From an uncultured Acidobacteriaceae bacterium (GTDB lineage Bacteria; Acidobacteriota; Terriglobia; Terriglobales; Acidobacteriaceae): a stretch of DNA of 64,000 bases. Position numbers and translations under genes: made by a program. The notes under the pieces were generated by a model. That model did no database searches and was not told where the DNA came from. It worked only from the letters and a program-made list of their open reading frames with translations. Below, one piece after another: positions 5,885-39,876 of this stretch; the first letter of the stretch is position 1, and every line of letters begins with the position of its first letter. The stretch spans positions 6,206,698 through 6,270,697 of the forward strand of contig OY969419.1 of NCBI GenBank assembly GCA_963699185.1, given 5' to 3'.

Positions 5885-6514
5885 ATGTCGAAAGCACCCG
5901 ATATTTCAATGAGCTTTTCGGCCTTCTTTCTTGCTGAGGTGGAAGAGGTTGCGCGCCAACTGGATGCTGCTACCATCGAACGAATAGCGCTACTGTTGTC
6001 GCAAGTGCGCGAGCGCGGTGGACGCCTGTTCATCCTGGGTGTGGGCGGCAGTGCGGGGAATGCGTCGCACGCGGTCAACGATTTCCGCAAGCTGACAGGG
6101 ATTGAGGCGTATGCACCCACAGACAACGTGTCCGAGCTGACGGCGCGCACGAATGACGAAGGCTGGCCGACGGTGTTTGAAGCGTGGCTGCGAGTGAGTC
6201 GGCTGCAATCGCGCGATGCGATTCTGGTGTTCTCGGTGGGCGGAGGCAGCGTCGAGCGCAATGTCAGCCCGAACATCGTCGCGGCGCTGGATTACGCGAA
6301 GTCGGTAGGCGCGAGCGTGGTGGGAATTGTCGGGCGGGACGGTGGTTACACAGCGCGCGTCGCGGATGCTTGTGTCATCATTCCGACGGTGCATGCTGAC
6401 CGGGTTACGCCTCATTCGGAAGCATTTCAGGCGATTGTGTGGCACTTGCTGGTGTCACATCCGGCGCTCCAGCAGAAAGCTACCAAATGGGAATCGATAA
6501 CGCCAACGCGTTGA
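5885..6514 (+). CDS. gmhA: SIS-domain sedoheptulose 7-phosphate isomerase
   Basis: SIS motif 'LFILGVGGSAGNASHAVNDFRK', plus heptose-operon context. Confidence 0.8.
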   Translation: MSKAPDISMSFSAFFLAEVEEVARQLDAATIERIALLLSQVRERGGRLFILGVGGSAGNASHAVNDFRKLTGIEAYAPTDNVSELTARTNDEGWPTVFEAWLRVSRLQSRDAILVFSVGGGSVERNVSPNIVAALDYAKSVGASVVGIVGRDGGYTARVADACVIIPTVHADRVTPHSEAFQAIVWHLLVSHPALQQKATKWESITPTR

Positions 6515-7065
6515 GGCGCGCGGTGTTCCTGGATCGCGACGGCGTATTGAATGAGCCCGTGGTGCAGGAGGGCAAGCCCTATCCTCCTGCAGATGCCGCG
6601 TCTCTGCGGGTCTATCCGGGCACGGCAGAAGCCCTGAATCGGCTGAAAGCCCGCGGCTACTTGTTGGTGGTGGTCACTAATCAGCCCGATGTCGTCCGAG
6701 GCACTCAGAAGCGCGATACGATTGAAGAGATCAACCGCCGCTTGTCTACGGAGTTGCCGCTGGACGACGTGCTGACCTGCTACCATGATGATGCGGACGA
6801 TTGTGACTGCCGGAAGCCGCGTCCAGGACTGATAAGGCGCGCGGCGCGGCAGCATGGGATCGATCTGAACCTTAGTTATATGATCGGCGACCGCTGGCGG
6901 GATATTGATGCCGGCGCGAACGCCGGCTGCAAAACCATCCTGATTGACCGGGGATATGCGGAGCGAGCGCCAGCGTCTGCTCCCGCCGCGCGCGTCGGGT
7001 CGCTGTCTGACGCGGTCGATTGGATCCTGAAGACACCACGGAGATCGCTTGAGAAGTGTCGCTGA
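6487..7065 (+). CDS. gmhB: HAD-family D,D-heptose 1,7-bisphosphate phosphatase
   Basis: HAD motif I 'AVFLDRDGVLN', 'VVVTNQPDV', the Cys cluster 'CYHDDADDCDCRKPRPG' and 'MIGDRWRDIDAG'. The start was chosen at ATG 6487 and overlaps the gmhA end. Confidence 0.8.
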   Translation: MGIDNANALRRAVFLDRDGVLNEPVVQEGKPYPPADAASLRVYPGTAEALNRLKARGYLLVVVTNQPDVVRGTQKRDTIEEINRRLSTELPLDDVLTCYHDDADDCDCRKPRPGLIRRAARQHGIDLNLSYMIGDRWRDIDAGANAGCKTILIDRGYAERAPASAPAARVGSLSDAVDWILKTPRRSLEKCR

Positions 7066-10724: not shown

Positions 10725-12242
10725 ATGATTCTGACTCAAGTCCGCAAGACAGCTGTGATCCTGTTCCTCGGATTGTCGGCTAGTTATATCTGTCTCTCGC
10801 CCGGCTCCATAGCCGGCCAGGGATACGCTGCAGAAGAAATCGACTCGGGGTTGCGAATCCTCGCGGTCGCAAGCGCCTGGATCAAGGGGCACCCCGTGCC
10901 TCCGATGATATGGTCTCGCCATGGACCGGTGCCGGTCTTGTTCGATCTGCCATTTCTGAAGGCTGGCAAGCTTTTTGTTTCTCCGGATTTCATGCTTTCG
11001 TTTCAGCCGGCGATATTGACGGCGGCATTGGTGACCATCCTCTTTCTCTGGCTGCGCAATCTATGCTCGCCAGGGATGAGTCTGTTCCTGACGCTGACTG
11101 CAGCGTTCGGGACGATGCTCTGGCCGTATGCTTACATTGGGCTGGAGACCAAGCAATCGCTTTTTGTTTTCTTAGCGGGTTACCTGGCGCTTGCAGGAGG
11201 AAAAATTCGTAGCTGGCCGCGCCTGCTGTTATTTGCGGTGGTGTGCGGTCTCACGTTGGCCGCGAAGTCCACAGGAATCATTCTGTGGCCAGTGATCGCG
11301 TATCTGGTTTACGTACAGTTTCAGGGCGAATGGCGTGAGCAGCGCAAGCAGGTTCTGGTCTCGATCCTCATCATTGGGTCTATCTGGGCGCTGGGACACT
11401 GGGGCACCGATCGTTATTGGGGTCCTCGTGGTGGCGGAGCCGGGAGTTTTAGGATGTGGATGATCGATTCCCCGCTGCAGTACTTCACCAATCTGATGGG
11501 AGTCCTGGGCTCCCCCAGCAAAGGGTTTTTCGTCTATGCGCCCGTGATGCTGGTAAGCCTCTACGCGGTGCCGCGGGCATTTCGCACTCACCGTCCGATC
11601 GCGATCTTCGCCCTGCTCGTCACCGGATGCACCTTGGGTTTTATTTGCCTGCTGACTTCTCCTGCGGACGAGGTCTGGGGCCTGCGCTATATGCACATCG
11701 CCATCGCACCCCTGATGTTGTGTACCGGGGCCGCCTTTCCGAGGCTCGAGTGGCGCCGGCGTGCGGTGGTTGCACTTCTGGCCGTAATCGGCGTGGCGAT
11801 CTCATTTCTGGGCGTGTTTTATTACTACGGTGGGATTGACTTCGCCGCCACGAAGGACGGAGAGAACGTCTTAGAATGGCTCACCGGGGATAGCAGTTGG
11901 AATCCGATAGAATTTCATGCTCGTCTGTTCAGGGTATGGCTATTCGACAGAGGCGCCGCGCCCGTTCTGTGGACGCCGAAACACACCTGGGTGTGGACTC
12001 CGCCGCCCGATGCTCCGCCATCGAAGAGCATAGACCTGCGTGACTACTGCCAACCGCAGTCGTTTATGCTGCGCTTTTGGCACGCACCGAAGGACGGCGT
12101 TGTGTTACGGATCTTCGCGACCTACGTGTTCTCGCTCGTGCTCGGCGTTTTGCTGCTGACGTGGGTGGTTCTCCGTACTTTCAAGGAACCCGAGCGTGTC
12201 GGTGAATTCGGTCTGGGCGCCAGGGAAGTTCGCGCTACCTGA
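10725..12242 (+). CDS. Polytopic membrane protein, putative GT-C-type (ArnT/PMT-like) glycosyltransferase
   Basis: 505 aa with more than 10 hydrophobic segments. It lies downstream of a polyprenyl-P-sugar-synthase-like GT2. The assignment rests on architecture and context only. Confidence 0.45.
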   Translation: MILTQVRKTAVILFLGLSASYICLSPGSIAGQGYAAEEIDSGLRILAVASAWIKGHPVPPMIWSRHGPVPVLFDLPFLKAGKLFVSPDFMLSFQPAILTAALVTILFLWLRNLCSPGMSLFLTLTAAFGTMLWPYAYIGLETKQSLFVFLAGYLALAGGKIRSWPRLLLFAVVCGLTLAAKSTGIILWPVIAYLVYVQFQGEWREQRKQVLVSILIIGSIWALGHWGTDRYWGPRGGGAGSFRMWMIDSPLQYFTNLMGVLGSPSKGFFVYAPVMLVSLYAVPRAFRTHRPIAIFALLVTGCTLGFICLLTSPADEVWGLRYMHIAIAPLMLCTGAAFPRLEWRRRAVVALLAVIGVAISFLGVFYYYGGIDFAATKDGENVLEWLTGDSSWNPIEFHARLFRVWLFDRGAAPVLWTPKHTWVWTPPPDAPPSKSIDLRDYCQPQSFMLRFWHAPKDGVVLRIFATYVFSLVLGVLLLTWVVLRTFKEPERVGEFGLGAREVRAT

Positions 12243-27718: not shown

Positions 27719-28390
27719 CTAACGTACCGCGCTGTCCGCCAGTCCGTTCATGCCGCGCAACAATTCACGCTGCTGATCGTCGAAGCTGTTGCGGAACTCG
27801 TCCGAGTTCATATATTGCGCGCGCTGCTCGGGCGTCATGTTGCGCAGTTTGTGGTACGCCTGCGACAACTGTGTCTTCTGGTCGGGTGGCAGACTGTGAT
27901 ACTGCTGAAAAAGGGTACGCGCCTCTGCCTGCTTTTCCGGAGGTAGGTGTTCATACGTCTCCATCCGGTTGAGGATCGCCTGCTGCTTATTCGGAGGCAG
28001 GCTGTTAAAGGAACGCAACCGGTTGAGCAGGTGCTCCTGCTTGTCGGCAGGCAGCGACTTGAACACCGGATCTTGTTCCAGTGTCTTCTCCTGCTGGCTC
28101 GGCGAAAGCCTGAAGTATTTGCGCAGCCAGTCTCCATTGTGCGGCCCGGGCCCTTTGAGGTGCATCTGCGCGCCACCGCTTGCCGGCTGCGGAACAGCAC
28201 CGGGGTTCATCGGGCGGGCCTGCGCAAGCATATCGAACGGCACCTGGTCGCCGGCTTGCGGCAACGGTGTTGTAGCAGCAGTCGGCGGCTGCTTGCGCTT
28301 AGGCCAGAGCGCCGTGGCTGACGCCGACAACGTGCTCAAAGCCACTACGAAAGCGATCAGGATGGAAGACGGCGCGCGCATAGCTTTCAA
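27719..28390 (-). CDS. Secreted DUF3106-like repeat protein
   Basis: Signal peptide 'MKAMRAPSSILIAFVVALSTLSASA'. Repeated 'LP(P/A)xKQ / TPEQR' helical motifs. Co-operonic with the anti-sigma and ECF sigma genes. Confidence 0.6.
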   Translation of the reverse strand: MKAMRAPSSILIAFVVALSTLSASATALWPKRKQPPTAATTPLPQAGDQVPFDMLAQARPMNPGAVPQPASGGAQMHLKGPGPHNGDWLRKYFRLSPSQQEKTLEQDPVFKSLPADKQEHLLNRLRSFNSLPPNKQQAILNRMETYEHLPPEKQAEARTLFQQYHSLPPDQKTQLSQAYHKLRNMTPEQRAQYMNSDEFRNSFDDQQRELLRGMNGLADSAVR

Positions 28391-28860
28391 TTGGTTTCAG
28401 TCTGGTTGTCGTCCAGAGCGTCAAAGTCAGAAAACAGGTCAGCGTTGTTGTCCAGATATTGCAGGTCAGTGACGGCGTTGGTGCTCACTACGGTGCCGGC
28501 ATTGTTGGCCAGTCTATCCTGATGGTCCGTTTTCCAATGCGCACCTTCGAGCAAGCCGACGCCGACCGCAAGCAACGCGGCCGCAGCCGTCATTACCGCC
28601 GGACGCCGTATCCACGCCAGCCAGCCGACGCTTTGCGTGGCGTGCTCCTCACGCATGCGCGCCCGCAAGCGCGCAGAGAAATACGGTGACGGCTCCGGCG
28701 TCTGCCAATCGTCCAGCAACACCATCGTCTGGCGCAGCGACGCTACTTCCTCGGCACAGGCTGAACACGTTGTCAGATGCTCCCGCACCGCAGGAGTAGC
28801 CAGTTCCGGCCCGTTCAGCACCGACTCCATCAACTGTTCGCGAATGTTCAAGCACTTCAT
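28387..28860 (-). CDS. Anti-sigma factor (zf-HC2 type) with one transmembrane helix
   Basis: N-terminal 'C..REQL...H...C..C' (HxxxCxxC) motif and a central hydrophobic helix. ATGA overlap with the downstream gene. Confidence 0.75.
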   Translation of the reverse strand: MKCLNIREQLMESVLNGPELATPAVREHLTTCSACAEEVASLRQTMVLLDDWQTPEPSPYFSARLRARMREEHATQSVGWLAWIRRPAVMTAAAALLAVGVGLLEGAHWKTDHQDRLANNAGTVVSTNAVTDLQYLDNNADLFSDFDALDDNQTETN

Positions 28861-28886
28861 GACCGCACCCTGCTTCCTGCAACTGC

Positions 28887-29495
28887 TTATATAAACTTTT
28901 TCAGTGTCTCCCGCAGCGTCTCGTACGCCCGGAACAACAACGATTTCGTGGCCGACTCGCTCAAATTCAGTACTGCCGCAATCTGCTTGTAATCCATGTT
29001 CTGGTACTTGTGCATGAGCACCGCCGCGCGCTGCCGTTCGGGTAGCGCCTCAACTTCCCGCCGGATCGCCGCCAGTCTCTCCCGGCGAAGCATGACCTGC
29101 TCGGCATTCAATCCGCGGTCCGCGACATCCACCGTCATTCCGGTTTCTGTGTCAGGCTCGTCGATGTTGACCGTGTTCTCCGGCCGCTCGTGCCTGGTGT
29201 CGCGCGCGTGATTCACCGCCAGGTTGGTCGCAATGCGATACAGCCATGTAGTGAACTTTGCGCTCGCCGCGTAAGTCTGTCGCGAACGGTACACCCGCAA
29301 GAACACTTCCTGCGCCAGCTCTTCTGCCACCGCCTGGTTTCGCGTCATGCGGTACATAAAGCTGTTCATCGGACGCCGGAATTTTTCCACCAGGTAGTCG
29401 AATGCGGCGTCGTCTCCCGCGGCCACGCGCAGCATGACCTCGGCATCGCTCAGCATCTCCAGAATCGGGGTCTCACCCACGGATGCCCGCGCCAT
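28887..29495 (-). CDS. ECF-type RNA polymerase sigma-70 family factor
   Basis: Region 2 'FDYLVEKFRRPMNSFMYRMTRNQAVAEELAQEVFLRVY' and region 4 'LPERQRAAVLMHKYQNMDYKQIAAVLNLSESATKSLLFRA'. The ATG at 29495 has GGAG 9 nt upstream. Longer forms (ATG at 29705 or 29855) are possible. Confidence 0.8.
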   Translation of the reverse strand: MARASVGETPILEMLSDAEVMLRVAAGDDAAFDYLVEKFRRPMNSFMYRMTRNQAVAEELAQEVFLRVYRSRQTYAASAKFTTWLYRIATNLAVNHARDTRHERPENTVNIDEPDTETGMTVDVADRGLNAEQVMLRRERLAAIRREVEALPERQRAAVLMHKYQNMDYKQIAAVLNLSESATKSLLFRAYETLRETLKKFI

Positions 29496-29841
29496 GTCTG
29501 GCAGCTCCGCAGTCCCCGCTGCCGATCCGCCCAAAAGTGCGCCTCGATTCAGTGCGATGCTGGCCACACTCCCTGTAACCCCCGTAGCTCCTGAAAGTTG
29601 TGTCGCGACGGGCCAGGTTTGGCCCGGTTTCTGCGGCTTCGCAATCGTTCCTGCCGGGGCTGGTTTTTGGCTTTCCCAATCGCGTTTTTTGCCGCCTGAT
29701 GACATTGTGGCTAACTGCCCTGCCACTCCAGTGTAAAACAGTATTATGCACAAGTCGCCCCAGCGCCGGCGGTTGGAATCTTGGGCTGAATTGACCCCAA
29801 TCCGAGTGGGCTCAACGAGCCGCGATGTAACATGCGCAAGA

Positions 29842-30495
29842 ATGCCTTTGGGCATCGTTTCGTGTCAGGGCACGGCTTCAGCCGTGCCGCTAAGCCCTGT
29901 ATTTTCTTCCCGAGCGGACTTTCGTCCGCGAGGCCCCGCTCTTTTCAGCAAGCTCTATAGCCCGAAAGTGTGTGCCGTCGCGCTAGCGTGGTTTTGCCTG
30001 ATGGCTGGATGCGTTTGTCAGTCCCGCGCGGCAACTCCCGCCCCGCAAGAGAAGCAGCCGGACGCTGCAGCACAGTCTCAGTCCGCGGCCCAGACCGAGC
30101 CCGCTGACCAGCCCGCACCTCAACCCATCGACCTTTCCGACGAGGTGATTCGCGACGTGCTCGACCACCTTCAGCGCGGCATTGAAACCCACGACCTCGA
30201 GCGTGTCCTCGACATCTTCGACCGCCAGAACATGAAGGACTTCGCCCAATTCCAGGACCAGATGGTGGCCTTCTTTCGCCGTTACGACAGCATCCGCTTT
30301 CGCTATCAGCTTCTGCAGGTCACGTCCGACAAAGACAGCGGGTCCGCCATCGCCGACATCGATATGGACGCCGATCCCAGCGACATCCTGCCGACTCCGC
30401 AGCGGCGTAGCACCCAGATGCGCTTCCAGTTGAAGCGCAGCCCCAAAGGCTGGAAGGTGGTCGCGCTGAAACCCGCTGACTTTTTCAACCAATAA
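29842..30495 (+). CDS. Hypothetical lipoprotein, NTF2/Tim44-like fold suspected
   Basis: Lipobox-like 'FCLMAGC' after a hydrophobic stretch, then a Pro/Gln/Ala-rich linker and a ~120-aa alpha+beta C-terminal domain. The start codon is uncertain. Confidence 0.4.
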   Translation: MPLGIVSCQGTASAVPLSPVFSSRADFRPRGPALFSKLYSPKVCAVALAWFCLMAGCVCQSRAATPAPQEKQPDAAAQSQSAAQTEPADQPAPQPIDLSDEVIRDVLDHLQRGIETHDLERVLDIFDRQNMKDFAQFQDQMVAFFRRYDSIRFRYQLLQVTSDKDSGSAIADIDMDADPSDILPTPQRRSTQMRFQLKRSPKGWKVVALKPADFFNQ

Positions 30496-32810: not shown

Positions 32811-32877
32811 GCTAATTGTTTATTGCTAATTGCTAATTACTAACCACCAGCTACCAGTTGCCAGTCACCAGTTGCCA
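32811..32877 (+). repeat. Micro-tandem repeats directly upstream of the 32896 gene
   Basis: 'gctaatt' occurs at 32811, 32825 and 32832. 'accagttgcca' occurs at 32853-32863 and 32867-32877. The block ends 8 nt before the AAGGAGGAG RBS. Confidence 0.8.
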
Positions 32878-32895
32878 TCGCCAAGGAGGAGACTC

Positions 32896-33885
32896 ATGAA
32901 CGACTACAAAACCTGCACTCACGCCTACGACAGCGGACGCACCTGCAAATCCGCTGCCGCCACAGGCCGCGAATTCTGCGGCTATCACCTCCGTTATCGC
33001 GGACGCCTCCTGCGCATGGCTCAGTTCCGCGCCCGCCACCAACACTTCGACATCACCCTGCCGCCGCTCGATAGCCTGTGCTCCATCCAGTCGGCGCTCA
33101 GCCAGGTCGCCGAAGCCCTCGCCGCCGACATGATCGATCCTCGCCGCGCGATGGGCCTTCTCAAGGCGCTCCGCTTTGCCAAAAAGAATCTCAAGGACGG
33201 CCTCAAGGACGACAGCTCCCACTGGCACGACACTCCCTACCTCACCGAAGACGCCACCGCCTACGACAACTTCGAAGCCGACTACGGCCTCCCCAAAGGC
33301 ATCGACCTCACCGCTCCCCCCGAAGTCGCCTTCCCCCCACCGCCTGAATCACAAGGTGTCATCCTGAGCGGAGGCGGCGCGCCTTTTGCGTCGCCGGAGT
33401 CGAAGGACCCCTGTTTCTCGACACACCCCCCGCGCGGCCTACAATTCCCTTCCTTCGACCGCGCGCCTCTTATCCCCGACATCCCGGCACCCGTCGTCCG
33501 CGATTACACCGCCGAAGCCGAGGTCGCTATGTTCGAGTCCACGCCCGAGGACATCGAGTTGATGGAAATCATGAAAGAACAAGGCTACAAAGCCATGGAG
33601 CGTCGCGGCCGCGAGCATCAACGCCGTTTCGATCGCAAGAGGCAGCGCAAGCTCTTCCGCGCCAACTATGAGCGCTACGTCGCCGAAGCCAAGCTCAAGA
33701 ACATCCAACGCGCCGCCGAAAAACTCCTGGCAGAAAAACTGGCGGCCGAAAAAGCCGCCGCCCAAAACGCGGCGGCGCAGGCCGATCACACGAGCGTTTC
33801 CGCCGCAACCAGGAAACAGCCCACTTCCGACAAGGTCTCATCGGAAACAGCGCAACAACAGAAGGAGGTCACGTCCATCGCCTAA
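32896..33885 (+). CDS. Hypothetical protein with N-terminal Cys/His knuckle and Lys/Glu/Ala-rich C-terminus
   Basis: ATG preceded by AAGGAGGAG. N-terminus 'CTHAYDSGRTCKSAAATGREFCGYH'. C-terminal charged helical region 'KLKNIQRAAEKLLAEKLAAEKAAAQ'. A REP-like element lies in frame at 33358-33419. Confidence 0.55.
   Translation: MNDYKTCTHAYDSGRTCKSAAATGREFCGYHLRYRGRLLRMAQFRARHQHFDITLPPLDSLCSIQSALSQVAEALAADMIDPRRAMGLLKALRFAKKNLKDGLKDDSSHWHDTPYLTEDATAYDNFEADYGLPKGIDLTAPPEVAFPPPPESQGVILSGGGAPFASPESKDPCFSTHPPRGLQFPSFDRAPLIPDIPAPVVRDYTAEAEVAMFESTPEDIELMEIMKEQGYKAMERRGREHQRRFDRKRQRKLFRANYERYVAEAKLKNIQRAAEKLLAEKLAAEKAAAQNAAAQADHTSVSAATRKQPTSDKVSSETAQQQKEVTSIA
33358..33419 (+). repeat. REP-like element (family B) embedded in frame in a CDS
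   Basis: It has the same 'gtcatcctgagcg' ... 'ggagtcgaag' flanks as 30520-30636, with a shorter internal hairpin. It is translated as 'VILSGGGAPFASPESKDPCFS'. Confidence 0.7.
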
Positions 33886-33932
33886 GTTGAGTTGTCGAAT
33901 CGGAGTGGTCGAGCTCGCACGCCGGCAGAGCT

Positions 33933-34012
33933 GTGCCTTCAAAAGGGTGAAGTGCGCTTTCAGCGGGGCAAGTCACGCCTTCAAATGGGTGGAGTACGCC
34001 TTCAGGCGTACA
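33933..34012. repeat. REP-like cluster (family C, 'gccttcaaa' units plus hairpin)
   Basis: The 25-nt units at 33933-33957 and 33975-33999 match at 21/25 positions. The hairpin 'gtacgccttcaggcgtac' lies at 33995-34012. Confidence 0.65.
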
Positions 34013-34496
34013 TTGATCCGGCCCGTCCAGAATTTGCGCTTTAGCGCCCGAGGTAATTGGTCTTTTAGCTCAACGGCTATATAGCCGGCTGCCACGAAGC
34101 GGTGCTCCAACCCGCTCTGAAGGTGCCTAACTCCCACGGGCAGACATAGATAGCTATAACTATCAATAAAATGAATGACATACGAACAATTTCCGCCTAA
34201 CTCAATGAAAACAAAGGGGGGCGTAACAGCAAATTTGCCGAATCGTACGACATTTTTTTCGGCATGGGCGAAACCTTTGCTCTCCTCCGGAGTCCTATCT
34301 GGCATTGCGCGGGGTTCAGAAACCGGGGACCTTCACTTTCGTATGCGGCAGCCCGGGCCGCATCACAACGGACGAAGAAAAGGATTCCCTTAACCCGGGA
34401 AATCCGACAGAATGCTTCGCACGTATGTTGCATAGGGCCACAGTAGAGATCTGACATTCAGGTCTTCCAACTAAACCTTTAGAGGAGAAATCACCA

Positions 34497-34787
34497 ATGA
34501 CGAAATCGATGAAGTCACTCATGATGGGCGCAGCACTGGCGGGATTCATGGCGGGCAACACCGCTATGGCGCAGACACCGTCGTCCACCTCCAACAGCTT
34601 TTCCAGCAACCCGAATCTGGGCCAGTTGTCGACCTCCTTCTCGAAAGACAAGCACGCCTGCAAGGGCCAGAACTCTTGTAAAGGCAAAGGCGGCTGTAAG
34701 ACCGGCGACCAGGGCTGCAAGGGCAAGAACAGCTGCAAGGGCAAGGGCGGATGCGCGACTGACGGATCCAAGCCTCCGGCGCAGTAA
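34497..34787 (+). CDS. Sec-exported Cys/Lys/Gly-repeat RiPP precursor peptide (bufferin-2 / HvfA-like)
   Basis: 96 aa, with GGAG 9 nt upstream. Signal peptide 'MTKSMKSLMMGAALAGFMAGNTAMA'. An S/T/N-rich spacer follows. Two 'CKGxNSCKGKGGC' units give 6 Cys. The gene is immediately upstream of a DUF692 gene. Confidence 0.8.
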   Translation: MTKSMKSLMMGAALAGFMAGNTAMAQTPSSTSNSFSSNPNLGQLSTSFSKDKHACKGQNSCKGKGGCKTGDQGCKGKNSCKGKGGCATDGSKPPAQ

Positions 34788-34810
34788 CCTCGAATACCCT
34801 TTGATCACGA

Positions 34811-34835
34811 GGGCCGGAGCCGCAACGTCCGGCCC
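34811..34835 (+). promoter_or_regulatory. Stem-loop between the precursor and modifying-enzyme genes
   Basis: Perfect 8-bp GC-rich stem gggccgga/tccggccc with a 9-nt loop and no U-tract. It may be a partial terminator or an mRNA-stability element. Confidence 0.35.
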
Positions 34836-34872
34836 CCGCGATCAACGTCTGGTCAGTTGTCTTTGAACTCGT

Positions 34873-35715
34873 ATGCCTGCGAATCGCTTTAACGGCTTCA
34901 CCGAATACGGAGTGGGAATCGGGCTGCGGATCCCGCACTATAACCACATCCTCGAGCGCAAGCCGGTGGTCGATTGGTTCGAAATCATCTCGGAAAATTT
35001 TATGGTGGAGGGCGGACGTCCACTGCATTTGCTCGACCAGATTCTCGAGCAGTATCGTGTGGTGCAGCACGGCGTCTCCATGTACTTCGGTTCCGTGGAA
35101 CCGCTGAATCGCGAGCATCTGCGGCGGCTGAAATCGCTGGTACGGCGCACCAAGACGCCCTGGCTCTCTGACCACCTGTGCTGGGGCAGTGTTGATGGCT
35201 CATACTCGCACGACCTGCTGCCCATGCCTTACACCTTCGAGGCAGCCAAGAAAACAGCGCAGAAGATCCGCGAGGCGCGCGATTTCCTGGAAGTGCCCGT
35301 CGTGGTGGAGAACGTCAGCAGCTACGCCGAGTTTCACGCTTCCGAAGTGACGGAGTGGCAGTTCCTCACCGAAGTTGTAGAAGATGCGGACTGCGGAATT
35401 CTGCTCGACGTGAACAACATCTACGTTTCCTCGCGCAATCATAATTTCGATCCCTACGACTACTTGCACAACGTTCCTCACGAGCGGGTCGCGCAGATTC
35501 ATATCGCCGGGCACTCGAAGTTCGAGAAGTACATCCTCGACACGCATGACCATGCTGTGATCGATCCGGTGTGGAAGCTTTATGCGCGAGCGATCGAACT
35601 GACTGGCCCGACGGCGACGTTGCTGGAGTGGGACGATCACATTCCTTCGTTCGACGAAGTGCACGGCGAAGCCTTGAAGGCCAATCGCTATGTGCCCGAG
35701 AAAGTAGTCGCGTGA
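34873..35715 (+). CDS. DUF692-family MNIO enzyme (MbnB/BufB/HvfB-like)
   Basis: 280 aa. 'GVGIGLRIPHYNHIL...VDWFEIISENFM...HGVSMYFGS...SDHLCW...ENVSSY...LLDVNNIYVS...HIAGH' matches the TIM-barrel DUF692 pattern. Confidence 0.88.
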   Translation: MPANRFNGFTEYGVGIGLRIPHYNHILERKPVVDWFEIISENFMVEGGRPLHLLDQILEQYRVVQHGVSMYFGSVEPLNREHLRRLKSLVRRTKTPWLSDHLCWGSVDGSYSHDLLPMPYTFEAAKKTAQKIREARDFLEVPVVVENVSSYAEFHASEVTEWQFLTEVVEDADCGILLDVNNIYVSSRNHNFDPYDYLHNVPHERVAQIHIAGHSKFEKYILDTHDHAVIDPVWKLYARAIELTGPTATLLEWDDHIPSFDEVHGEALKANRYVPEKVVA

Positions 35716-36599
35716 TGGATCTCGACCGCATTCAGCGAAACATGTTTGACGCGGTGCGTCAGCCGCTGACCGCCGCCGAAAACATGCGGCAACGCACCAG
35801 CGATGGGCGTTCGCTGCGACATATTGCCGAGGAGATCATCAAGCCGAACGATCGCCTCACCTCGTTTGAGCGCCTGGAAATTTACAACCGGCAATATTGG
35901 TTCCGTGTGCTGGCTGCGCTGGCCGAGGACTTCGAGGGATTAAGGCTGATCATCGGCGATCGTCAATTTGAAAAGCTCTCCATCGCCTATCTGCAGGATT
36001 GTCCGTCGCAGTCGTTCACGCTGCGCAACCTGGGATCGCGTCTGGAGCCGTGGCTGCGTGCGCATCCCGAGTTCGTAGCTGGAGTCGAAACGATCGCGCT
36101 CGATATGGCGCGACTGGAGTGGGCGGAAATCGAAGCCTTCGACGAGGCATCGAAGCCGAAGCTGACGGAAGCAGACCTGGCCACGCTTGGCCCCGATCCG
36201 CAATTCGAACTGCAACCCTTTATTCGCCTGCTCGATTTGCAATTCCCCGTTGACGAAATGTTGCTCGCCATACGCCACGATCACCGGGAGAACGACATTG
36301 TCAGCAACGCCGTTGCGAGTAGTTCTGCGCGCAGACGTCCTCGCAAACGCTCTCTGCCAAAGCCTGAGAAGATTTTCCTGGCCGTACATCGCGCGGAAAA
36401 CTCGGTGTACTTCAAGCACCTCGACGCCGAAGCGTTCGGAATCCTGTGCGCGCTGCGCGATGGTAAGCGCCTTTCCGAGGCCGTCGAATTCGTTGAATGG
36501 AGCAGTCGCTCGGGCGAACAAGCGGCTGAGAATTTGCAGAGGTGGTTCGCGCTCTGGTCCTCTCTGGGCTGGTTCTGCAAAACGGAACAACATTCATGA
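35715..36599 (+). CDS. DUF2063-family partner protein (MbnC/BufC/HvfC-like)
   Basis: The ATG shares one nucleotide with the DUF692 stop (TGATG). N-terminus 'MDLDRIQRNMFDAVRQPLT...YNRQYWFRVLAAL'. Its size and position are those of the MNIO partner subunit. Confidence 0.75.
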   Translation: MDLDRIQRNMFDAVRQPLTAAENMRQRTSDGRSLRHIAEEIIKPNDRLTSFERLEIYNRQYWFRVLAALAEDFEGLRLIIGDRQFEKLSIAYLQDCPSQSFTLRNLGSRLEPWLRAHPEFVAGVETIALDMARLEWAEIEAFDEASKPKLTEADLATLGPDPQFELQPFIRLLDLQFPVDEMLLAIRHDHRENDIVSNAVASSSARRRPRKRSLPKPEKIFLAVHRAENSVYFKHLDAEAFGILCALRDGKRLSEAVEFVEWSSRSGEQAAENLQRWFALWSSLGWFCKTEQHS

Positions 36600-37075
36600 C
36601 AACGATCGCGGACAAATTGCAGCGGGCGTATTCGATCCTCGTTAAATGCGCCAACACCCTGCAACCGTTTCTGCTGCTATTCGTGCGTTTGTATTGGGGA
36701 TGGCAGTTCGTCGTAGATGGCTGGGGCAAACTGCACAACTTGCCGAAGGTCATCGAATACTTCGGCAGCCTCGGATTGCCGGCACCGGGTCCGACGGCAT
36801 ACTTCGTGTCGATCCTCGAACTGGTCGGAGGTGTCCTACTCGCGCTTGGACTGGGAAGCCGTCTCATCGCCCTCCTATTGACCGGCAACATGACCGTAGC
36901 CTACATCGCTGGCGATCGCGAGGCCCTGCTGTCCATCTTCTCCGATCCCGACAAGTTCTCCGCCGCTGCTCCATTCACGTATCTCATGGCCTCGCTGGTT
37001 ATCCTGATCTTCGGGCCGGGCCGCTTCTCGCTGGACTACCTGATCGCACGCCACGGGCAGCAGGGCTCCGTATGA
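36596..37075 (+). CDS. DoxX family membrane protein (HvfX/bufferin-cluster type)
   Basis: ATGA overlap with the upstream stop. Four hydrophobic helices, with 'LLLFVRLYWGWQFVVDGWGKL' and 'ELVGGVLLALGLGSR'. Confidence 0.8.
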   Translation: MTTIADKLQRAYSILVKCANTLQPFLLLFVRLYWGWQFVVDGWGKLHNLPKVIEYFGSLGLPAPGPTAYFVSILELVGGVLLALGLGSRLIALLLTGNMTVAYIAGDREALLSIFSDPDKFSAAAPFTYLMASLVILIFGPGRFSLDYLIARHGQQGSV

Positions 37076-37124
37076 GCTGGTGGCAAGGCGACCGTGGCCC
37101 CTCGGGAATCAAGATTTGAAGCAC

Positions 37125-38105
37125 ATGCAGTTTTCGCCCGGCCGGCGTTTGCACCGCATACTCGCAATCTCTGTGATGGCGGTTTGCGCTTTCAGGGCTA
37201 TCTTTTGGCTGGCATCGGAGCGAGAGCAGGCAGCGGGTCCGGCTACGAGCATCAGTATCTGCGGGTCTACTATCGACGTTCGCTTCCTGGGAGAAACAAG
37301 TACGATCTCCCAAACCGACCTGATGAACTGGGTCCATCGTGCAGGGGACGCGGTGTGCACTTACTATGGCAAGTTCCCTGTTCCCCACGTCGGTCTGGAT
37401 GTTCGAGTCCGCGGAGGAGCCGGCGTCCACGGTGGAGTGACCTACCCCACGAGCGGCGGATACATCAGCATCTCTCTGGGGGCGGACACCACAGTTGCGC
37501 ACCTCGATGACGATTGGATGCTCACCCACGAGATGATCCACCTGGCCTTCCCCGAAATGGACCGAAAGCATCACTGGATCGAGGAAGGGATCTCGGTTTA
37601 CGTCGAGCCGATTGCGCGGGTCCAGGCCGGACAGCTTTCGGCTGAGCGAATGTGGCACGATGTCGTACGCGATATGCCGCAGGGCGAACCTGAAGCGGGC
37701 GATAAGGGACTCGATCACACGCCGACCTGGGGACGCACGTACTGGGGCGGAGCGATGTTCTGCCTGATGGCTGATGTCCGTATCCGAGAGCAAACGCACA
37801 ACCAGAAGGGACTGCAAGACGCGCTGCGGGGCATTCTTGCAGCAGGTGGAAACATCACGCAGGATTGGGAGATCGAACGCGCGTTTGCGGCGGGCGACAA
37901 GGCTACAGGTACCACTGTGCTTACCGATCTGTATCAGGAAATGCGCGACAAGCCCGATCCAGTGGATCTCGCGGCATTATGGAAACGACTGGGGATTCAA
38001 CGCCAACCGGATGGGTCAATCAAGTTCGATGCCAGCGCACCCGAAGCCGAAATACGCGGTGCCATCACTCGCCCCTACCCCAAGGCACAGCAAGGGCAAC
38101 GGTGA
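37125..38105 (+). CDS. Secreted or membrane-anchored zinc metalloprotease (HExxH, gluzincin-like)
   Basis: N-terminal signal anchor 'LHRILAISVMAVCAFRAIFWLAS'. 'HEMIHLAFPEMDRKHHWIEEG' carries the HExxH motif plus a downstream Glu. It starts 49 nt after the DoxX stop on the same strand. Confidence 0.65.
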   Translation: MQFSPGRRLHRILAISVMAVCAFRAIFWLASEREQAAGPATSISICGSTIDVRFLGETSTISQTDLMNWVHRAGDAVCTYYGKFPVPHVGLDVRVRGGAGVHGGVTYPTSGGYISISLGADTTVAHLDDDWMLTHEMIHLAFPEMDRKHHWIEEGISVYVEPIARVQAGQLSAERMWHDVVRDMPQGEPEAGDKGLDHTPTWGRTYWGGAMFCLMADVRIREQTHNQKGLQDALRGILAAGGNITQDWEIERAFAAGDKATGTTVLTDLYQEMRDKPDPVDLAALWKRLGIQRQPDGSIKFDASAPEAEIRGAITRPYPKAQQGQR

Positions 38106-38128
38106 GAGCTTCGCGCGAGACTGGAAGC

Positions 38129-39622
38129 TTAGAGGTAGACCCGCTCCTGGGCGCGAATTGCGCGATAGCGTTCGAAGACCCTGCGGTCGCTTTCCAGTCC
38201 GAGCGCCGATCGCAAGCTGCTTCCGCGGAAGGTGTGCGACAGCATGCGCGGCCAATTCTTAAGAACGAACCACGGTTCCTTAGCGATGACGGAAGGCATG
38301 TGCGCGGTCTTCATCCAGCGTTCTTTCCGCCAGCGCTCGTACTCAATCTCTTCGGGCGCGAGGTGTTCCGTCGCAACCACGGCAGTCGTGCCATCGTATT
38401 CTTCGAGCCGCTCGATCTTGATAAGGTTGCGGGCGCGGAAGTCCTTCGTCATCGGGGTGCCGGGATAGGGCGTGGGGTGCTGAATGTAAGGCCAGTCAAC
38501 GTACTTACGCGCGAAGTCGAGGTTGGTGCGGATGGAGTCGAGAGTGTCATCGGGATTGCCGACGATCAGGCCGCCTACGACGTACATCTTGTGCTTGTGC
38601 AGGATGTCAATTGCACGAATGCTGGCATTGCCGGTGCGCTTGCCGTCTTCGCGAAACGAGTTCTTGGCCGAAGCCTTCAGGTACACCAGGTCGTCTTCCA
38701 GGATGTTTTCTATCCCCAGAAACACGTAACGGAAGCCCGCCTTTTGCATCAACGGCGCAAGCGTCTCCCCGTGCATGGCGATAGGCGAGGTCATAGCCTG
38801 AACGGTGTACGCGATGTCGTTCAGCCCGGCATCGATGATGGCCTGGCACAGCGCCTCGAAGCGCTTAATGTTCAACGAAATGTTGTCGTCAACCAGGAAG
38901 ATTGCTCGCGCTCCGTTGTCCCGGGCATCACGAATGTCGGCCAGCACGCGGTCGAACGAGTAGGTGTGAAAATTGCGGCCGCGCATCTCGATAATCGAAC
39001 AGAAGCCGCAATCGAAAGTGCAGCCGCGCGAGGTCTCGATCACGTCAACCTGCCTGCCCATCATGGTGTAGCCACCGAGCACGCGCGCCTTGCGATTGGG
39101 CAACTTGATCTCGTCGCCTTCCAAGGTGTGCACGGGACGAGGAATGTTTTCACGCCACGTCGTGCCTTCGCGATAGGTCAGGCCCGCGATTCCGTCGTAA
39201 CTATGACCGTTTTCCAGGGCGCGCAACAACTCGCGGAAGGTCAGTTCGCCCTCACCGCGCACGATGAAGTCAATGCCAGTTCCCTGCTCGCGGTAAGCAT
39301 CCGAGGCGAGACTGGGATCGTAGCCGCCCACTACAACTCGTACTCCGGGCTTCAGCGAGCGGACCAGTTCAACCACGCGAAAAGCGGTCTTGCGCTGGAA
39401 GGTCATGACCGACAGTCCAACGATGTCGGGATCGAGTTCGCGCATCAGCCGCTCGACGGTCGGCCGGACACGTTGCTGCACAAGAATAAGGTCGGCAACT
39501 GCGACTTTGTGGTGAGGATCGACATTGCCCGCCAGTGAGGTCAGGCCCCCGTTCGGCATACGCACCGCGACGGTGGGCATGTGCTCGAACGAATCGGGCA
39601 TGGAGAGCAGGAGTACTTTCAA
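38129..39622 (-). CDS. B12-binding domain-containing radical SAM protein (class B)
   Basis: TTG start with GGAG 7 nt upstream gives 'MKVLLLSMPD'. There is an N-terminal cobalamin-binding-like Rossmann region. The radical SAM motif is 'RGCTFDCGFC' (CxxxCxxC). Confidence 0.8.
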   Translation of the reverse strand: MKVLLLSMPDSFEHMPTVAVRMPNGGLTSLAGNVDPHHKVAVADLILVQQRVRPTVERLMRELDPDIVGLSVMTFQRKTAFRVVELVRSLKPGVRVVVGGYDPSLASDAYREQGTGIDFIVRGEGELTFRELLRALENGHSYDGIAGLTYREGTTWRENIPRPVHTLEGDEIKLPNRKARVLGGYTMMGRQVDVIETSRGCTFDCGFCSIIEMRGRNFHTYSFDRVLADIRDARDNGARAIFLVDDNISLNIKRFEALCQAIIDAGLNDIAYTVQAMTSPIAMHGETLAPLMQKAGFRYVFLGIENILEDDLVYLKASAKNSFREDGKRTGNASIRAIDILHKHKMYVVGGLIVGNPDDTLDSIRTNLDFARKYVDWPYIQHPTPYPGTPMTKDFRARNLIKIERLEEYDGTTAVVATEHLAPEEIEYERWRKERWMKTAHMPSVIAKEPWFVLKNWPRMLSHTFRGSSLRSALGLESDRRVFERYRAIRAQERVYL

Positions 39623-39876
39623 GATGCGGCTCCTTCGAGTTTTGCCGAGGGCCCCACAACGGCCTGAGTGCATAAATGGTACACCGAAATCCCTGCGACG
39701 GGAGAAGCATGGCCGCAGTTTGCGGTTCGTCTTTCGAGCAAGTGGGCAGGAGCTCTCAACCTGATGTGCGCAGGCCGAGGTGTAAACTTCCAACCATTAC
39801 AATGTAATCGGCATAGTAGTACAGGCAGCGGCGGAGGAGGGTCATGCGCCGCGTCCTGAATTTAGCAAGGAGGCTT

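Follow-up and report, generated by a model that had tools for sequence, protein, structure and literature searches.

Does a small exported Cys-rich peptide, encoded in an acidobacterial genome together with an oxidative enzyme, its partner and a membrane protein, represent a novel natural-product system or a further member of a known one, and where does the operon that encodes it end? Such questions are of interest as the bufferins and captophorins, a recently recognised form of bacterial copper defence, are, with loci numbering in the tens of thousands, among the largest of the RiPP families. The locus considered here lies within a 64-kb stretch of DNA, referred to below as the window, and had been described in a preliminary fashion as a Bufferin/HvfA-type operon of four genes, composed of the peptide gene and of genes encoding DUF692- (now MNIO), DUF2063- and DoxX-type proteins.

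Comparison with the ORF list and the sequence demonstrated that the gene coordinates, the gap and the overlaps of that preliminary description match base for base (Table 1). Specifically, the good ribosome-binding site claimed for the precursor gene corresponds to a GAGGAG element situated 9 nt 5' of the precursor ATG; the 85-nt gap, bounded by the precursor TAA (34785-34787) and the MNIO ATG, is exact; the MNIO TGA and the ATG of the DUF2063 gene have one base in common (TGATG); and the TGA of the DUF2063 gene overlaps the doxX ATG (ATGA). These overlaps suggest that translation of the enzyme genes is coupled. While the four genes stand as described, the right boundary placed at 37075 was too short, excluding a fifth co-directional gene that forms part of the conserved cluster. 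The operon is composed of five conserved genes rather than four, together with a conserved promoter motif and a hairpin that follows the precursor gene. A scan of positions 33800-38300 detected neither a sigma-70 promoter nor an intrinsic terminator on the + strand, an Rfam scan of positions 33700-38300 was empty at an E-value of 1 or better, and no sigma/anti-sigma pair adjoins the operon.

Table 1. Features of the operon, in window coordinates.
Feature	Position	Strand	Basis or remarks
Putative ECF-sigma-type promoter	34401..34425	+	-35 AATCC, 16-nt spacer, -10 CGTA
Shine-Dalgarno GAGGAG	34482..34487	+	Sequence reading; AGGAG or GGAGG at the same place in related loci
bufA2-like precursor, 96 aa	34497..34787	+	ORF; NCBIfam NF050166
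GC-rich stem-loop in the precursor-MNIO spacer	34801..34845	+	Inverted repeat, folding energy, conservation
bufB, MNIO (formerly DUF692), 280 aa, predicted cytoplasmic	34873..35715	+	PF05114, NCBIfam MNIO_BufB
bufC, DUF2063-type MNIO partner (PME type 1), 294 aa	35715..36599	+	PF09836
bufD, DoxX-family integral membrane protein, 159 aa	36596..37075	+	PF07681
Fifth gene, predicted M61/M1-like gluzincin metallopeptidase, 326 aa	37125..38105	+	AlphaFold2 model and Foldseek

Profile searches supported all four of the family assignments proposed initially (precursor, MNIO, DUF2063 and DoxX). Matches above the Pfam gathering scores were obtained for the MNIO with PF05114 (MbnB_TglH_ChrH; E 3.2e-106), for its partner with PF09836 (DUF2063; E 4.4e-13, 49.7 bits, cut-off 27.2), and for the DoxX protein with PF07681 (E 1.3e-20, 74.3 bits, cut-off 23.6); the preliminary description had staked its reading on the first two of these, the products of the genes starting at 34873 and 35715. 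With respect to subgroup, the MNIO exceeds the curated cut-off of the NCBIfam model 'MNIO family bufferin maturase' (MNIO_BufB; 344.1 bits, cut-off 310) and falls below those of the HvfB (252 bits, cut-off 360) and MbnB (39 bits, cut-off 325) models, and its top sequence match in the PDB is 3bww (E 3.3e-48). All nine of the iron ligands, as listed in the literature (PMC8888699), are kept in the MNIO, with H66 located by alignment to 3bww and the others (H101, E146, D179, N182, H210, D223, H225 and E252) by alignment to VcMbnB (7dz9). The base, D254, is also conserved. Judged by its sequence, the MNIO is a bufferin-subgroup enzyme with what reads as an intact iron site.

An AlphaFold2 model of BufC, built with database homologues (pLDDT 75.6), finds its closest PDB fold in chain A of the TglHI holoenzyme (8hi7_A; E 3.6e-5), which we take to be TglI, and the model thereby supports a TglI-like fold for BufC. 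The fold search also returned, for the C-terminal domain of BufC, a weak resemblance to RRE leader-binding domains (TbiB1; E about 1). Against the corresponding NCBIfam models of the Hvf system, BufC scored only 37 bits (HvfC equivalog; cut-off 142) and the DoxX protein 65.2 bits (HvfX family; cut-off 80), and sequence searches of the PDB with BufC, with the DoxX protein and with the product of the fifth gene each returned no meaningful match. DoxX has been shown to be dispensable in Caulobacter (PMC11626156), and the DoxX protein presumably functions as an accessory membrane protein.

The precursor begins, by inspection, with the Sec-type signal peptide that had been attributed to it, MTKSMKSLMMGAALAGFMAGNTAMA, followed directly by QT. 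Its n-region contains Lys3 and Lys6, next comes a hydrophobic stretch, and an A-M-A cleavage motif stands before the Gln; no lipobox was seen in it. The signal peptide (residues 1-25) is followed by a variable Ser/Thr/Asn-rich spacer (26-50) and by a core (51-92) containing two 19-aa units, CKGxNSCKGKGGCxxGDxG, within which the duplicated CKGxNSCKGKGGC motif had been stated correctly, and the six Cys residues occupy positions 55, 61, 67, 74, 80 and 86. A sequence search identified upwards of 7,600 homologues. When 62 related loci are compared, the core is the best conserved region (mean per-position identity 0.89), followed by the signal peptide (0.71), with the spacer far behind at 0.29; five of the Cys residues are invariant, the sixth, Cys74, being present in 85%. 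On the strength of these homologues and this region-wise conservation, the small ORF is judged a real gene. The sole family matched by the precursor is NCBIfam NF050166 (BufA2; E 2.5e-8), at 34 bits where the cut-off is 60; the BufA2-model scores of its relatives grade without a break from 34 to 63 bits, and one relative passes the cut-off. These scores support its placement as a divergent peptide of the BufA2 type. No Pfam family, DUF2282 included, matched the precursor at an E-value of 0.01 or better, no EGKCG repeat occurs in it, its motifs being CKG with Cys before Lys, and no second copy of it was found within the 64-kb window.

Taken together, these data make it very probable that a Terriglobia acidobacterium here carries a RiPP operon of the bufferin-2 type, also termed BUF_6/12Cys or 'Cys-Lys captophorin', with a copper-buffering peptide as its product. 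The published core order of bufferin clusters is precursor-MNIO-DUF2063-DoxX (PMC12452194), and the 'Cys-Lys' precursor group defined elsewhere agrees with the Cys-Lys-Gly motifs observed here (PMC13097082). As Buf2 has been characterised in Caulobacter (PMC11626156), and as sets of Buf2, MNIO, DUF2063 and DoxX have been catalogued in Ca. Koribacter versatilis and Acidobacterium (Table S2 of PMC12452194, a listing made with its authors' BUF_6/12Cys profile, while the precursor here was scored with NF050166), the core operon is an ordinary new member of a characterised class and not a new system. The initial designation of an uncharacterised acidobacterial member thus holds with regard to membership and fails with regard to novelty; similarly, of the label Bufferin/HvfA-type, the first half is retained while the HvfA/EGKCG subtype is abandoned in light of the HvfB score and the missing repeat. 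Because no copper or other metal genes adjoin the operon, the copper role is assigned by homology, and it is from studies of other members that both this role and the thiooxazole chemistry are taken (PMC11626156; PMC13097082). What has not been described previously in these soil Acidobacteria is the conserved fifth gene, encoding a membrane-anchored zinc peptidase.

Two elements outside the coding sequences are shared among the related loci. Firstly, 34 of the 62 loci carry an AATCC-N16/17-CGTA motif 5' of the precursor gene, as compared to 0.1% of shuffled upstream regions, and its spacers diverge between loci while both boxes stay; the motif is missing in the other 28. In the present locus its CGTA box ends 72 nt 5' of the precursor ATG, and AATCC-16-nt-CGTA has no other exact match in the 64-kb window. 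Transcription of the operon probably starts at this putative ECF-sigma-type promoter. The possibility that the motif recurs elsewhere, for instance ahead of the ECF sigma gene at 28887-29855, was considered and rejected, there being no further exact match in the window; single-mismatch copies are no more frequent than chance predicts, and the closest of them (11901-11925) lies inside a coding gene. Secondly, the spacer between the precursor and MNIO genes contains a stem-loop with 18-nt arms, 89% complementary, and a 9-nt loop (MFE -32.7 kcal/mol, z -1.7), with no T-run 3' of it in this window. Of the 62 loci, 55 have a stem of 8 bp or longer no more than 80 nt from the precursor stop codon, versus 18% of shuffles, and the stem sequences vary between clades. 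As a result of this stem-loop, precursor mRNA is probably more abundant relative to enzyme mRNA than it would otherwise be.

In the product of the fifth gene, a membrane helix near the N-terminus (residues 7-34) precedes a gluzincin domain of the M61/M1-like kind, with a zinc motif, H135-E136-x-x-H139, and a downstream Glu, E154. The HExxH motif, E154, Y159 and Y206 are invariant among 61 diverse relatives. Foldseek analysis of its AlphaFold2 model (pLDDT 93.3) returned as the top match the M61 aminopeptidase 7xyo (E 4e-9), followed by 4fgm, the M1 peptidase 6kp0 and ERAP/IRAP, the M61/M1 structures as a group matching at E 4e-9 to 1e-6 with a TM-score of about 0.5 on the query. Because no Pfam or NCBIfam family was matched by the protein itself, and because Peptidase_M61 matches among its relatives (16 of 61; best E 0.003) are weak and sub-threshold, the modelled protein is classed as a fold-level relative of M61 and not as a member of the Pfam family.

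A census of 80 genome loci, anchored on the fifth gene rather than on the precursor, placed this gene directly 3' of precursor-MNIO-DUF2063-DoxX in 66 (63, plus 3 truncated by contig ends), with the five-gene order and strand kept at fifth-gene identities of 50-89%. The order is also kept in locus L008, where other genes flank the operon and the start of the fifth gene lies 4 nt inside doxX. Sampling from the precursor side found the fifth gene in 4 of 4 close loci and in 0 of 2 distant ones. Buf2-type operons outside this clade lack the gene, which speaks against a role for the peptidase. The fifth protein is probably a membrane-anchored peptidase that faces the periplasm and is inherited with the operon in this clade. 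It is conceivable, albeit doubtful, that the protein trims the poorly conserved 25-residue spacer off the N-terminus of the exported peptide.

The chief competing explanation, to which we give slightly less than an even chance, retains the same four-gene bufferin-2 operon and considers the fifth gene a mere conserved neighbour, encoding a general periplasmic or envelope peptidase that does not act on the bufferin. Consistent with this explanation is the finding that close homologues of the fifth gene stand alone in unrelated contexts in 14 of the 80 loci, among which no shared neighbour was found, and that the wider family, comprising 2,626 cluster representatives, includes many secreted forms of 470-500 aa with no MNIO gene in their loci. 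Additionally, published surveys find no further conserved genes in bufferin clusters (PMC12452194), and because mature Caulobacter Buf2 retains its entire post-signal-peptide sequence (PMC11626156), trimming is no general requirement. A mere neighbour is harder to reconcile, however, with an order and strand kept in 66 of 80 loci at the identities given above, with the persistence of that order despite changed flanks and the doxX overlap in L008, with the restriction of the operon to a short, membrane-anchored form that lacks the N-terminal domain, and with the lack of any terminator-like site on the + strand between doxX and the fifth gene. A separate idea, that the 470-500-aa relatives are DoxX fusions, was rejected, as Pfam shows no DoxX domain in them and no family was matched by the additional domain at their N-terminus. 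The full proposal advanced here, namely that bufferin-2 operons in Terriglobia have acquired a dedicated zinc peptidase, M61-like and anchored in the membrane, which would remove the variable, disordered spacer from the modified peptide once export by Sec and cleavage of the signal peptide are complete, with the whole unit under a conserved ECF-sigma promoter, is more tentative than trimming considered by itself and may well prove incorrect.

With regard to the peptide, a bufferin-2 pathway would proceed, as extrapolated from Caulobacter Buf2 and related systems, through binding of the precursor by a cytoplasmic MNIO-DUF2063 complex (BufB-BufC) which, with O2 and the iron cluster, would oxidise the central Cys residues, probably Cys61, 67, 74 and 80, by four electrons each to yield 5-thiooxazoles. 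The peptide would then leave by Sec, with the signal peptide cut after Ala25; a Cys55-Cys86 disulfide would form; and the periplasmic product would chelate Cu(I)/Cu(II) and buffer copper stress. By analogy, the product is likely a periplasmic copper-buffering peptide with four 5-thiooxazoles and one disulfide. It is rather unlikely that the modified peptide is directed against something other than copper, for example another soft metal (Hg, Au, Ag, Cd) or redox stress, or that its Cys residues bind metal directly through their thiolates in the manner of a periplasmic metallothionein. Such roles would fit with the lack of copper genes nearby, the score of the precursor below the BufA2 equivalog cut-off, the unusually Lys- and Gly-rich core, and the fusion of some Buf1/Buf2 domains to MerC in mercury loci, the authors of that work having proposed roles beyond copper (PMC12452194). 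However, every tested member of the MNIO and DUF2063 class yields Cu-binding thiooxazole peptides (PMC11626156; PMC13097082), and the MNIO described here passes the BufB equivalog model with its active site intact. An HvfA/oxazolin-type or methanobactin-type system in place of Buf2 would share the enzyme superfamily and the partner protein, and the preliminary description had grouped these systems together, but it is highly improbable and already disfavoured by the HvfB and MbnB scores, by the missing EGKCG repeat and DUF2282 match, and by a Sec signal peptide that methanobactin precursors lack.

The core operon of the bufferin-2 reading adds only one more member to its class, from soil Acidobacteria, which are abundant and largely uncultured. 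Of more use is a testable lead, namely a structurally clear, unclassified peptidase family that appears to be inherited with the operon across a whole clade. We know of no protease for the bufferin/captophorin RiPP class, and if the trimming proposal is true, the class would gain in this peptidase its first dedicated maturation protease and, with it, a two-step leader removal. In addition, the conserved promoter motif and hairpin provide handles for tracing the regulator, and whichever signal induces the operon, in organisms without genetics.

Among known systems, bufferin 2 of Caulobacter vibrioides (BufA2B2C2, CCNA_02999-03001) shares with the locus a precursor with a Sec signal peptide, six Cys residues and a small Lys/Gly-rich core, as well as the precursor-MNIO-DUF2063 order and an MNIO of the BufB type; similarly, no sigma/anti-sigma gene is found in the cluster, as reported for Buf2. 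In contrast to Caulobacter bufferin 2, the precursor described here has a long, variable Ser/Thr-rich spacer and remains below the score required for BufA2, doxX is present whereas the Caulobacter buf2 cluster lacks it, and the operon carries an M61-like peptidase gene in an acidobacterial host. Bufferin 1 is defined by a DUF2282 precursor with four conserved Cys residues, and no DUF2282 match was obtained here. The 'Lys-Cys' captophorins, namely oxazolin (HvfABCX of Haemophilus influenzae), gonophorin and fontiphorin, have in common with this locus an MNIO, a DUF2063 partner, DoxX and a Sec-exported Cys-repeat precursor, and current work assigns to them 5-thiooxazole chemistry and a function in copper detoxification (PMC13097082). 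Their repeat, however, is EGKCG, with Lys before Cys, whereas the repeat here is C-K-G, and the HvfB, HvfC and HvfX equivalog models all remain below cut-off for the genes of this operon. FonBC left substrates with a charged residue after Cys unprocessed (PMC13097082), a result which argues for subtype-specific enzymes. Methanobactin biosynthesis (MbnABC) employs the same MNIO fold and iron ligands and likewise involves oxidation of Cys to a copper-binding heterocycle; it differs in its small precursor, which bears a leader and lacks a Sec signal peptide, in its partner, MbnC, and in its product, a secreted chalkophore for copper uptake.

For the fifth protein, the nearest known enzymes are the M61 glycyl aminopeptidases and two-domain M1 peptidases (7xyo, 8j9c, 6kp0), with which it shares the gluzincin fold, the HExxH motif with its downstream Glu, and the invariant Tyr. 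Identity to these enzymes is only 13-18%, the fifth protein has a membrane anchor and lacks their N-terminal beta domain, and no GxMEN exopeptidase motif was seen in it by eye. M1 peptidases of the AplP type cut leaders from class III lanthipeptides, and AplP thus provides a precedent for the trimming of a RiPP leader by an M1-type peptidase.

Every detail of the four-gene layout in the preliminary description, including its coordinates, the 85-nt spacer and the TGATG and ATGA overlaps, was reproduced from the ORF list and the raw sequence, confirming the observation. Only one copy of the operon occurs in the window, and the two have similar GC contents (0.585 for the operon, 0.571 for the window). 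Profile searches identified the MNIO, its partner and the DoxX protein as members of the Pfam families MbnB_TglH_ChrH (E 3.2e-106), DUF2063 (E 4.4e-13) and DoxX (E 1.3e-20), respectively.

Features of the bufferin-type operon (window coordinates)
Feature	Position	Strand	Detail	Basis
Putative promoter AATCC-N16-CGTA	34401-34425			Motif match
GAGGAG	34482-34487	+	Shine-Dalgarno position, before precursor	Raw sequence
Precursor ORF	34497-34787	+	96 aa	ORF list, raw sequence
Spacer, precursor to MNIO	between 34787 and 34873		85 nt	Raw sequence
Stem-loop	34801-34845		18-bp stem, 89% complementary; between precursor and MNIO genes	
MNIO ORF	34873-35715	+	280 aa	ORF list
Partner ORF	35715-36599	+	294 aa; start within TGATG	ORF list, raw sequence
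DoxX ORF	36596-37075	+	159 aa; start within ATGA	ORF list, raw sequence
Fifth gene ORF	37125-38105	+	Strand shared with doxX; 49 nt past doxX, then convergent radical-SAM gene	

The proposed Sec signal peptide can be read by eye in the precursor N-terminus, MTKSMKSLMMGAALAGFMAGNTAMA/QT, as three Sec regions and an AxA cleavage site (slash), and both copies of the proposed core, CKGxNSCKGKGGC, are present, the six Cys being residues 55, 61, 67, 74, 80 and 86. The precursor has zero Pfam matches; its sole NCBIfam match is the model "BufA2 family periplasmic bufferin-type metallophore" (E 2.5e-8), at 34 bits (cut-off 60). Since its relatives score 34-63 bits with this model, one of them above the cut-off, the window peptide appears to be a divergent BufA2 family member, at the far end of a continuous series. 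More than 7,600 homologues are present in databases, none named by the source databases. Compared position by position with the window peptide, the precursors of 62 related loci have mean identities of 0.71 in the signal peptide, 0.29 in residues 26-50 and 0.89 in the core, and five Cys are invariant; as judged from sequence, the precursor is a real gene under selection.

The 19-residue unit occurs two, three or four times per relative, giving 6, 9 or 12 Cys. Three units and 9 Cys are found in P0084, P0091 and P0100, while Cys74, the fourth Cys, is absent from a 5-Cys subclade with the core CKGQNSCKGKGGCGSTKGKNDCKGKGEC (loci L042, L045, L046, L047, L051, L053, L056, L062 and L065); neither count agrees with the "6 or 12 Cys" of published accounts. 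In Ca. Angelobacter (L096 / L097, 6001-6294), the precursor gene P0110 is an orphan: MNIO genes are absent within 6 kb, and a C39-peptidase ABC transporter gene lies ~2.6 kb upstream of P0110.

The MNIO scores 344.1 bits with the NCBIfam model "MNIO family bufferin maturase" (cut-off 310). It falls well short of HvfB (252 bits, cut-off 360) and scores well under the cut-offs for ApyH, ChrH and MbnB. The partner and DoxX proteins match the HvfC and HvfX models, both below cut-off. When the MNIO was aligned to Vibrio MbnB (7dz9) and 3bww, using the iron-ligand list of PMC8888699, the ligand set was complete (H66, H101, E146, D179, N182, H210, D223, H225, E252), and the proposed general base, D254, was likewise conserved. 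Among solved structures, the partner model (pLDDT 75.6) best matches a chain of the TglHI holoenzyme (E 3.6e-5) taken to be TglI, and its C-terminal domain bears a weak resemblance to RRE leader-binding domains. In L006 (8779-10592), an otherwise syntenic long-read MAG locus, the MNIO appears as a 148-aa fragment and DUF2063 and DoxX as one 455-aa fusion; L007, with an identical precursor, has all three genes intact, and these differences most likely reflect assembly indels rather than biology.

The putative promoter motif has no other exact match in the window, and in 34 of the 62 loci it likewise precedes the precursor, with divergent spacers, as compared with 0.1% of shuffles. ECF-sigma promoters typically have this two-box form. 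An imperfect palindrome, GGATTCCC-TTAACCCG-GGAAATCC (34382-34405), preceded by an A-run, overlaps the putative -35 box and was flagged by a scan as terminator-like on the minus strand; GATTCCC...GGGAAATC-like pairs occur in close relatives, and the palindrome may serve as an operator or terminate antisense transcripts. The sequence leading up to the precursor gene varies among related loci; here it comprises ~500 apparently non-coding nt (33886-34400) and a 351-aa ORF (32830-33885, plus strand) with no family match and a Lys/Ala/Glu-rich C-terminus. An ECF sigma gene (28887-29855; true start probably later, ~197 aa), a 157-aa ORF (28387-28860; from its position only, a guessed anti-sigma factor) and a DUF3106-like gene lie ~4.6 kb upstream of the operon (27719-29855, minus strand). 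The trio is syntenic in L004 and L006, and no copy of AATCC-N16/17-CGTA precedes it. No metal-related genes were found near the operon.

Of the 62 loci, 55 have a stem of 8 or more unbroken base pairs in the 80 nt after the precursor stop (18% of shuffles), with a mean stem length of 11.5 bp versus 6.4 bp when shuffled. The stems differ in sequence from clade to clade, many distant loci have a T-rich tail behind the stem, a tail that the window lacks, and Rfam gave zero matches in the operon region. Such a hairpin is in keeping with the common RiPP arrangement of more precursor mRNA than enzyme mRNA, and here might act by attenuating transcription or by stabilising the mRNA.

The fifth gene also directly follows doxX in L004, L006 and L007, as well as in L008, where the flanks differ and the two genes overlap by 4 nt. 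A genome scan anchored on the fifth protein returned 80 loci, nearly all from Terriglobia MAGs: 63 carry all five genes in order, three more are interrupted by a contig end, and 14 carry the fifth gene alone, with no shared neighbour found among them. Two Buf2-type operons outside the Terriglobia clade lack the gene. At its position, the Thermoanaerobaculia locus L091, with a 12-Cys precursor, has a DinB_2 gene (6148-6678) overlapping the doxX end, and the other has nothing. Beyond the fifth gene, a B12-binding radical SAM gene (38129-39793, minus strand), whose best NCBIfam matches (BchE, HpnR and RiPP C-methyltransferases) are all far under cut-offs, is syntenic in L004, L006 and L007; because it is missing in L008, it is probably outside the bufferin unit.

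The fifth protein has no Pfam, NCBIfam or PDB sequence match, and 2,626 relatives were found among 1.84 billion cluster representatives. Many carry an additional N-terminal domain of ~200 aa, which is not DoxX, and these long forms occur in unrelated gene contexts. Weak Peptidase_M61 matches were obtained for 16 of 61 diverse relatives, in whose alignment W131, H135, E136, H139, W151, E154, G155, Y159, E161, R165, Y206, G208 and G209 are invariant. The AlphaFold2 model (pLDDT 93.3) comprises a single N-terminal membrane helix and a catalytic domain, with the M61 aminopeptidases 7xyo (E 4e-9) and 8j9c as top solved matches, followed by 4fgm and M1 peptidases including ERAP and IRAP. Together, the fold, invariant residues and helix mark the protein as a membrane-anchored gluzincin peptidase, and its basic N-terminus implies an orientation towards the periplasm, where the exported peptide would also reside. 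The unconserved precursor spacer being a plausible substrate in that compartment, the favoured hypothesis, a tentative one that is possible rather than probable, is that the peptidase trims this spacer. Precedent is provided by the M1-type leader peptidases of class III lanthipeptides. Since mature Caulobacter Buf2 keeps its N-terminal region (PMC11626156), trimming is put forward here as a hypothesis.

Bufferins were defined in Caulobacter, where the central four of the six Buf2 Cys lose 4 Da each and a disulfide joins the outer pair, the peptide builds up in the periplasm and protects against copper, copper induces expression via an ECF sigma factor, and DoxX is dispensable (PMC11626156). 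5-Thiooxazoles have since been assigned across the class, named captophorins, with a "Cys-Lys" precursor group that includes BufA2 (PMC13097082). By homology to these tested systems, the MNIO-partner complex would oxidise four Cys to 5-thiooxazoles in the cytoplasm, after which the peptide would be exported by Sec, the disulfide would form and copper would be chelated. A survey recognised a core set of precursor, MNIO, DUF2063 and DoxX genes, with further conserved genes very rare and Buf2 clusters lacking sigma/anti-sigma genes, and lists for both Ca. Koribacter versatilis and Acidobacterium one Buf_6-12Cys, one MNIO, one DUF2063 and an adjacent DoxX (PMC12452194, Table S2). The literature thus supports the preliminary interpretation of a bufferin-type operon as right in kind; the novelty is smaller than suggested, the subtype being known and already catalogued. 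As an example of a very large, known class, the core operon is ordinary; the five-gene form specific to Terriglobia, in which the M61-like peptidase is unclassified, is a new, if modest, variant and merits one experiment. As for known systems, the window peptide is by its CKG motifs consistent with the "Cys-Lys" captophorin group (PMC13097082), and the putative two-box promoter agrees with the ECF control of the Caulobacter bufferins.
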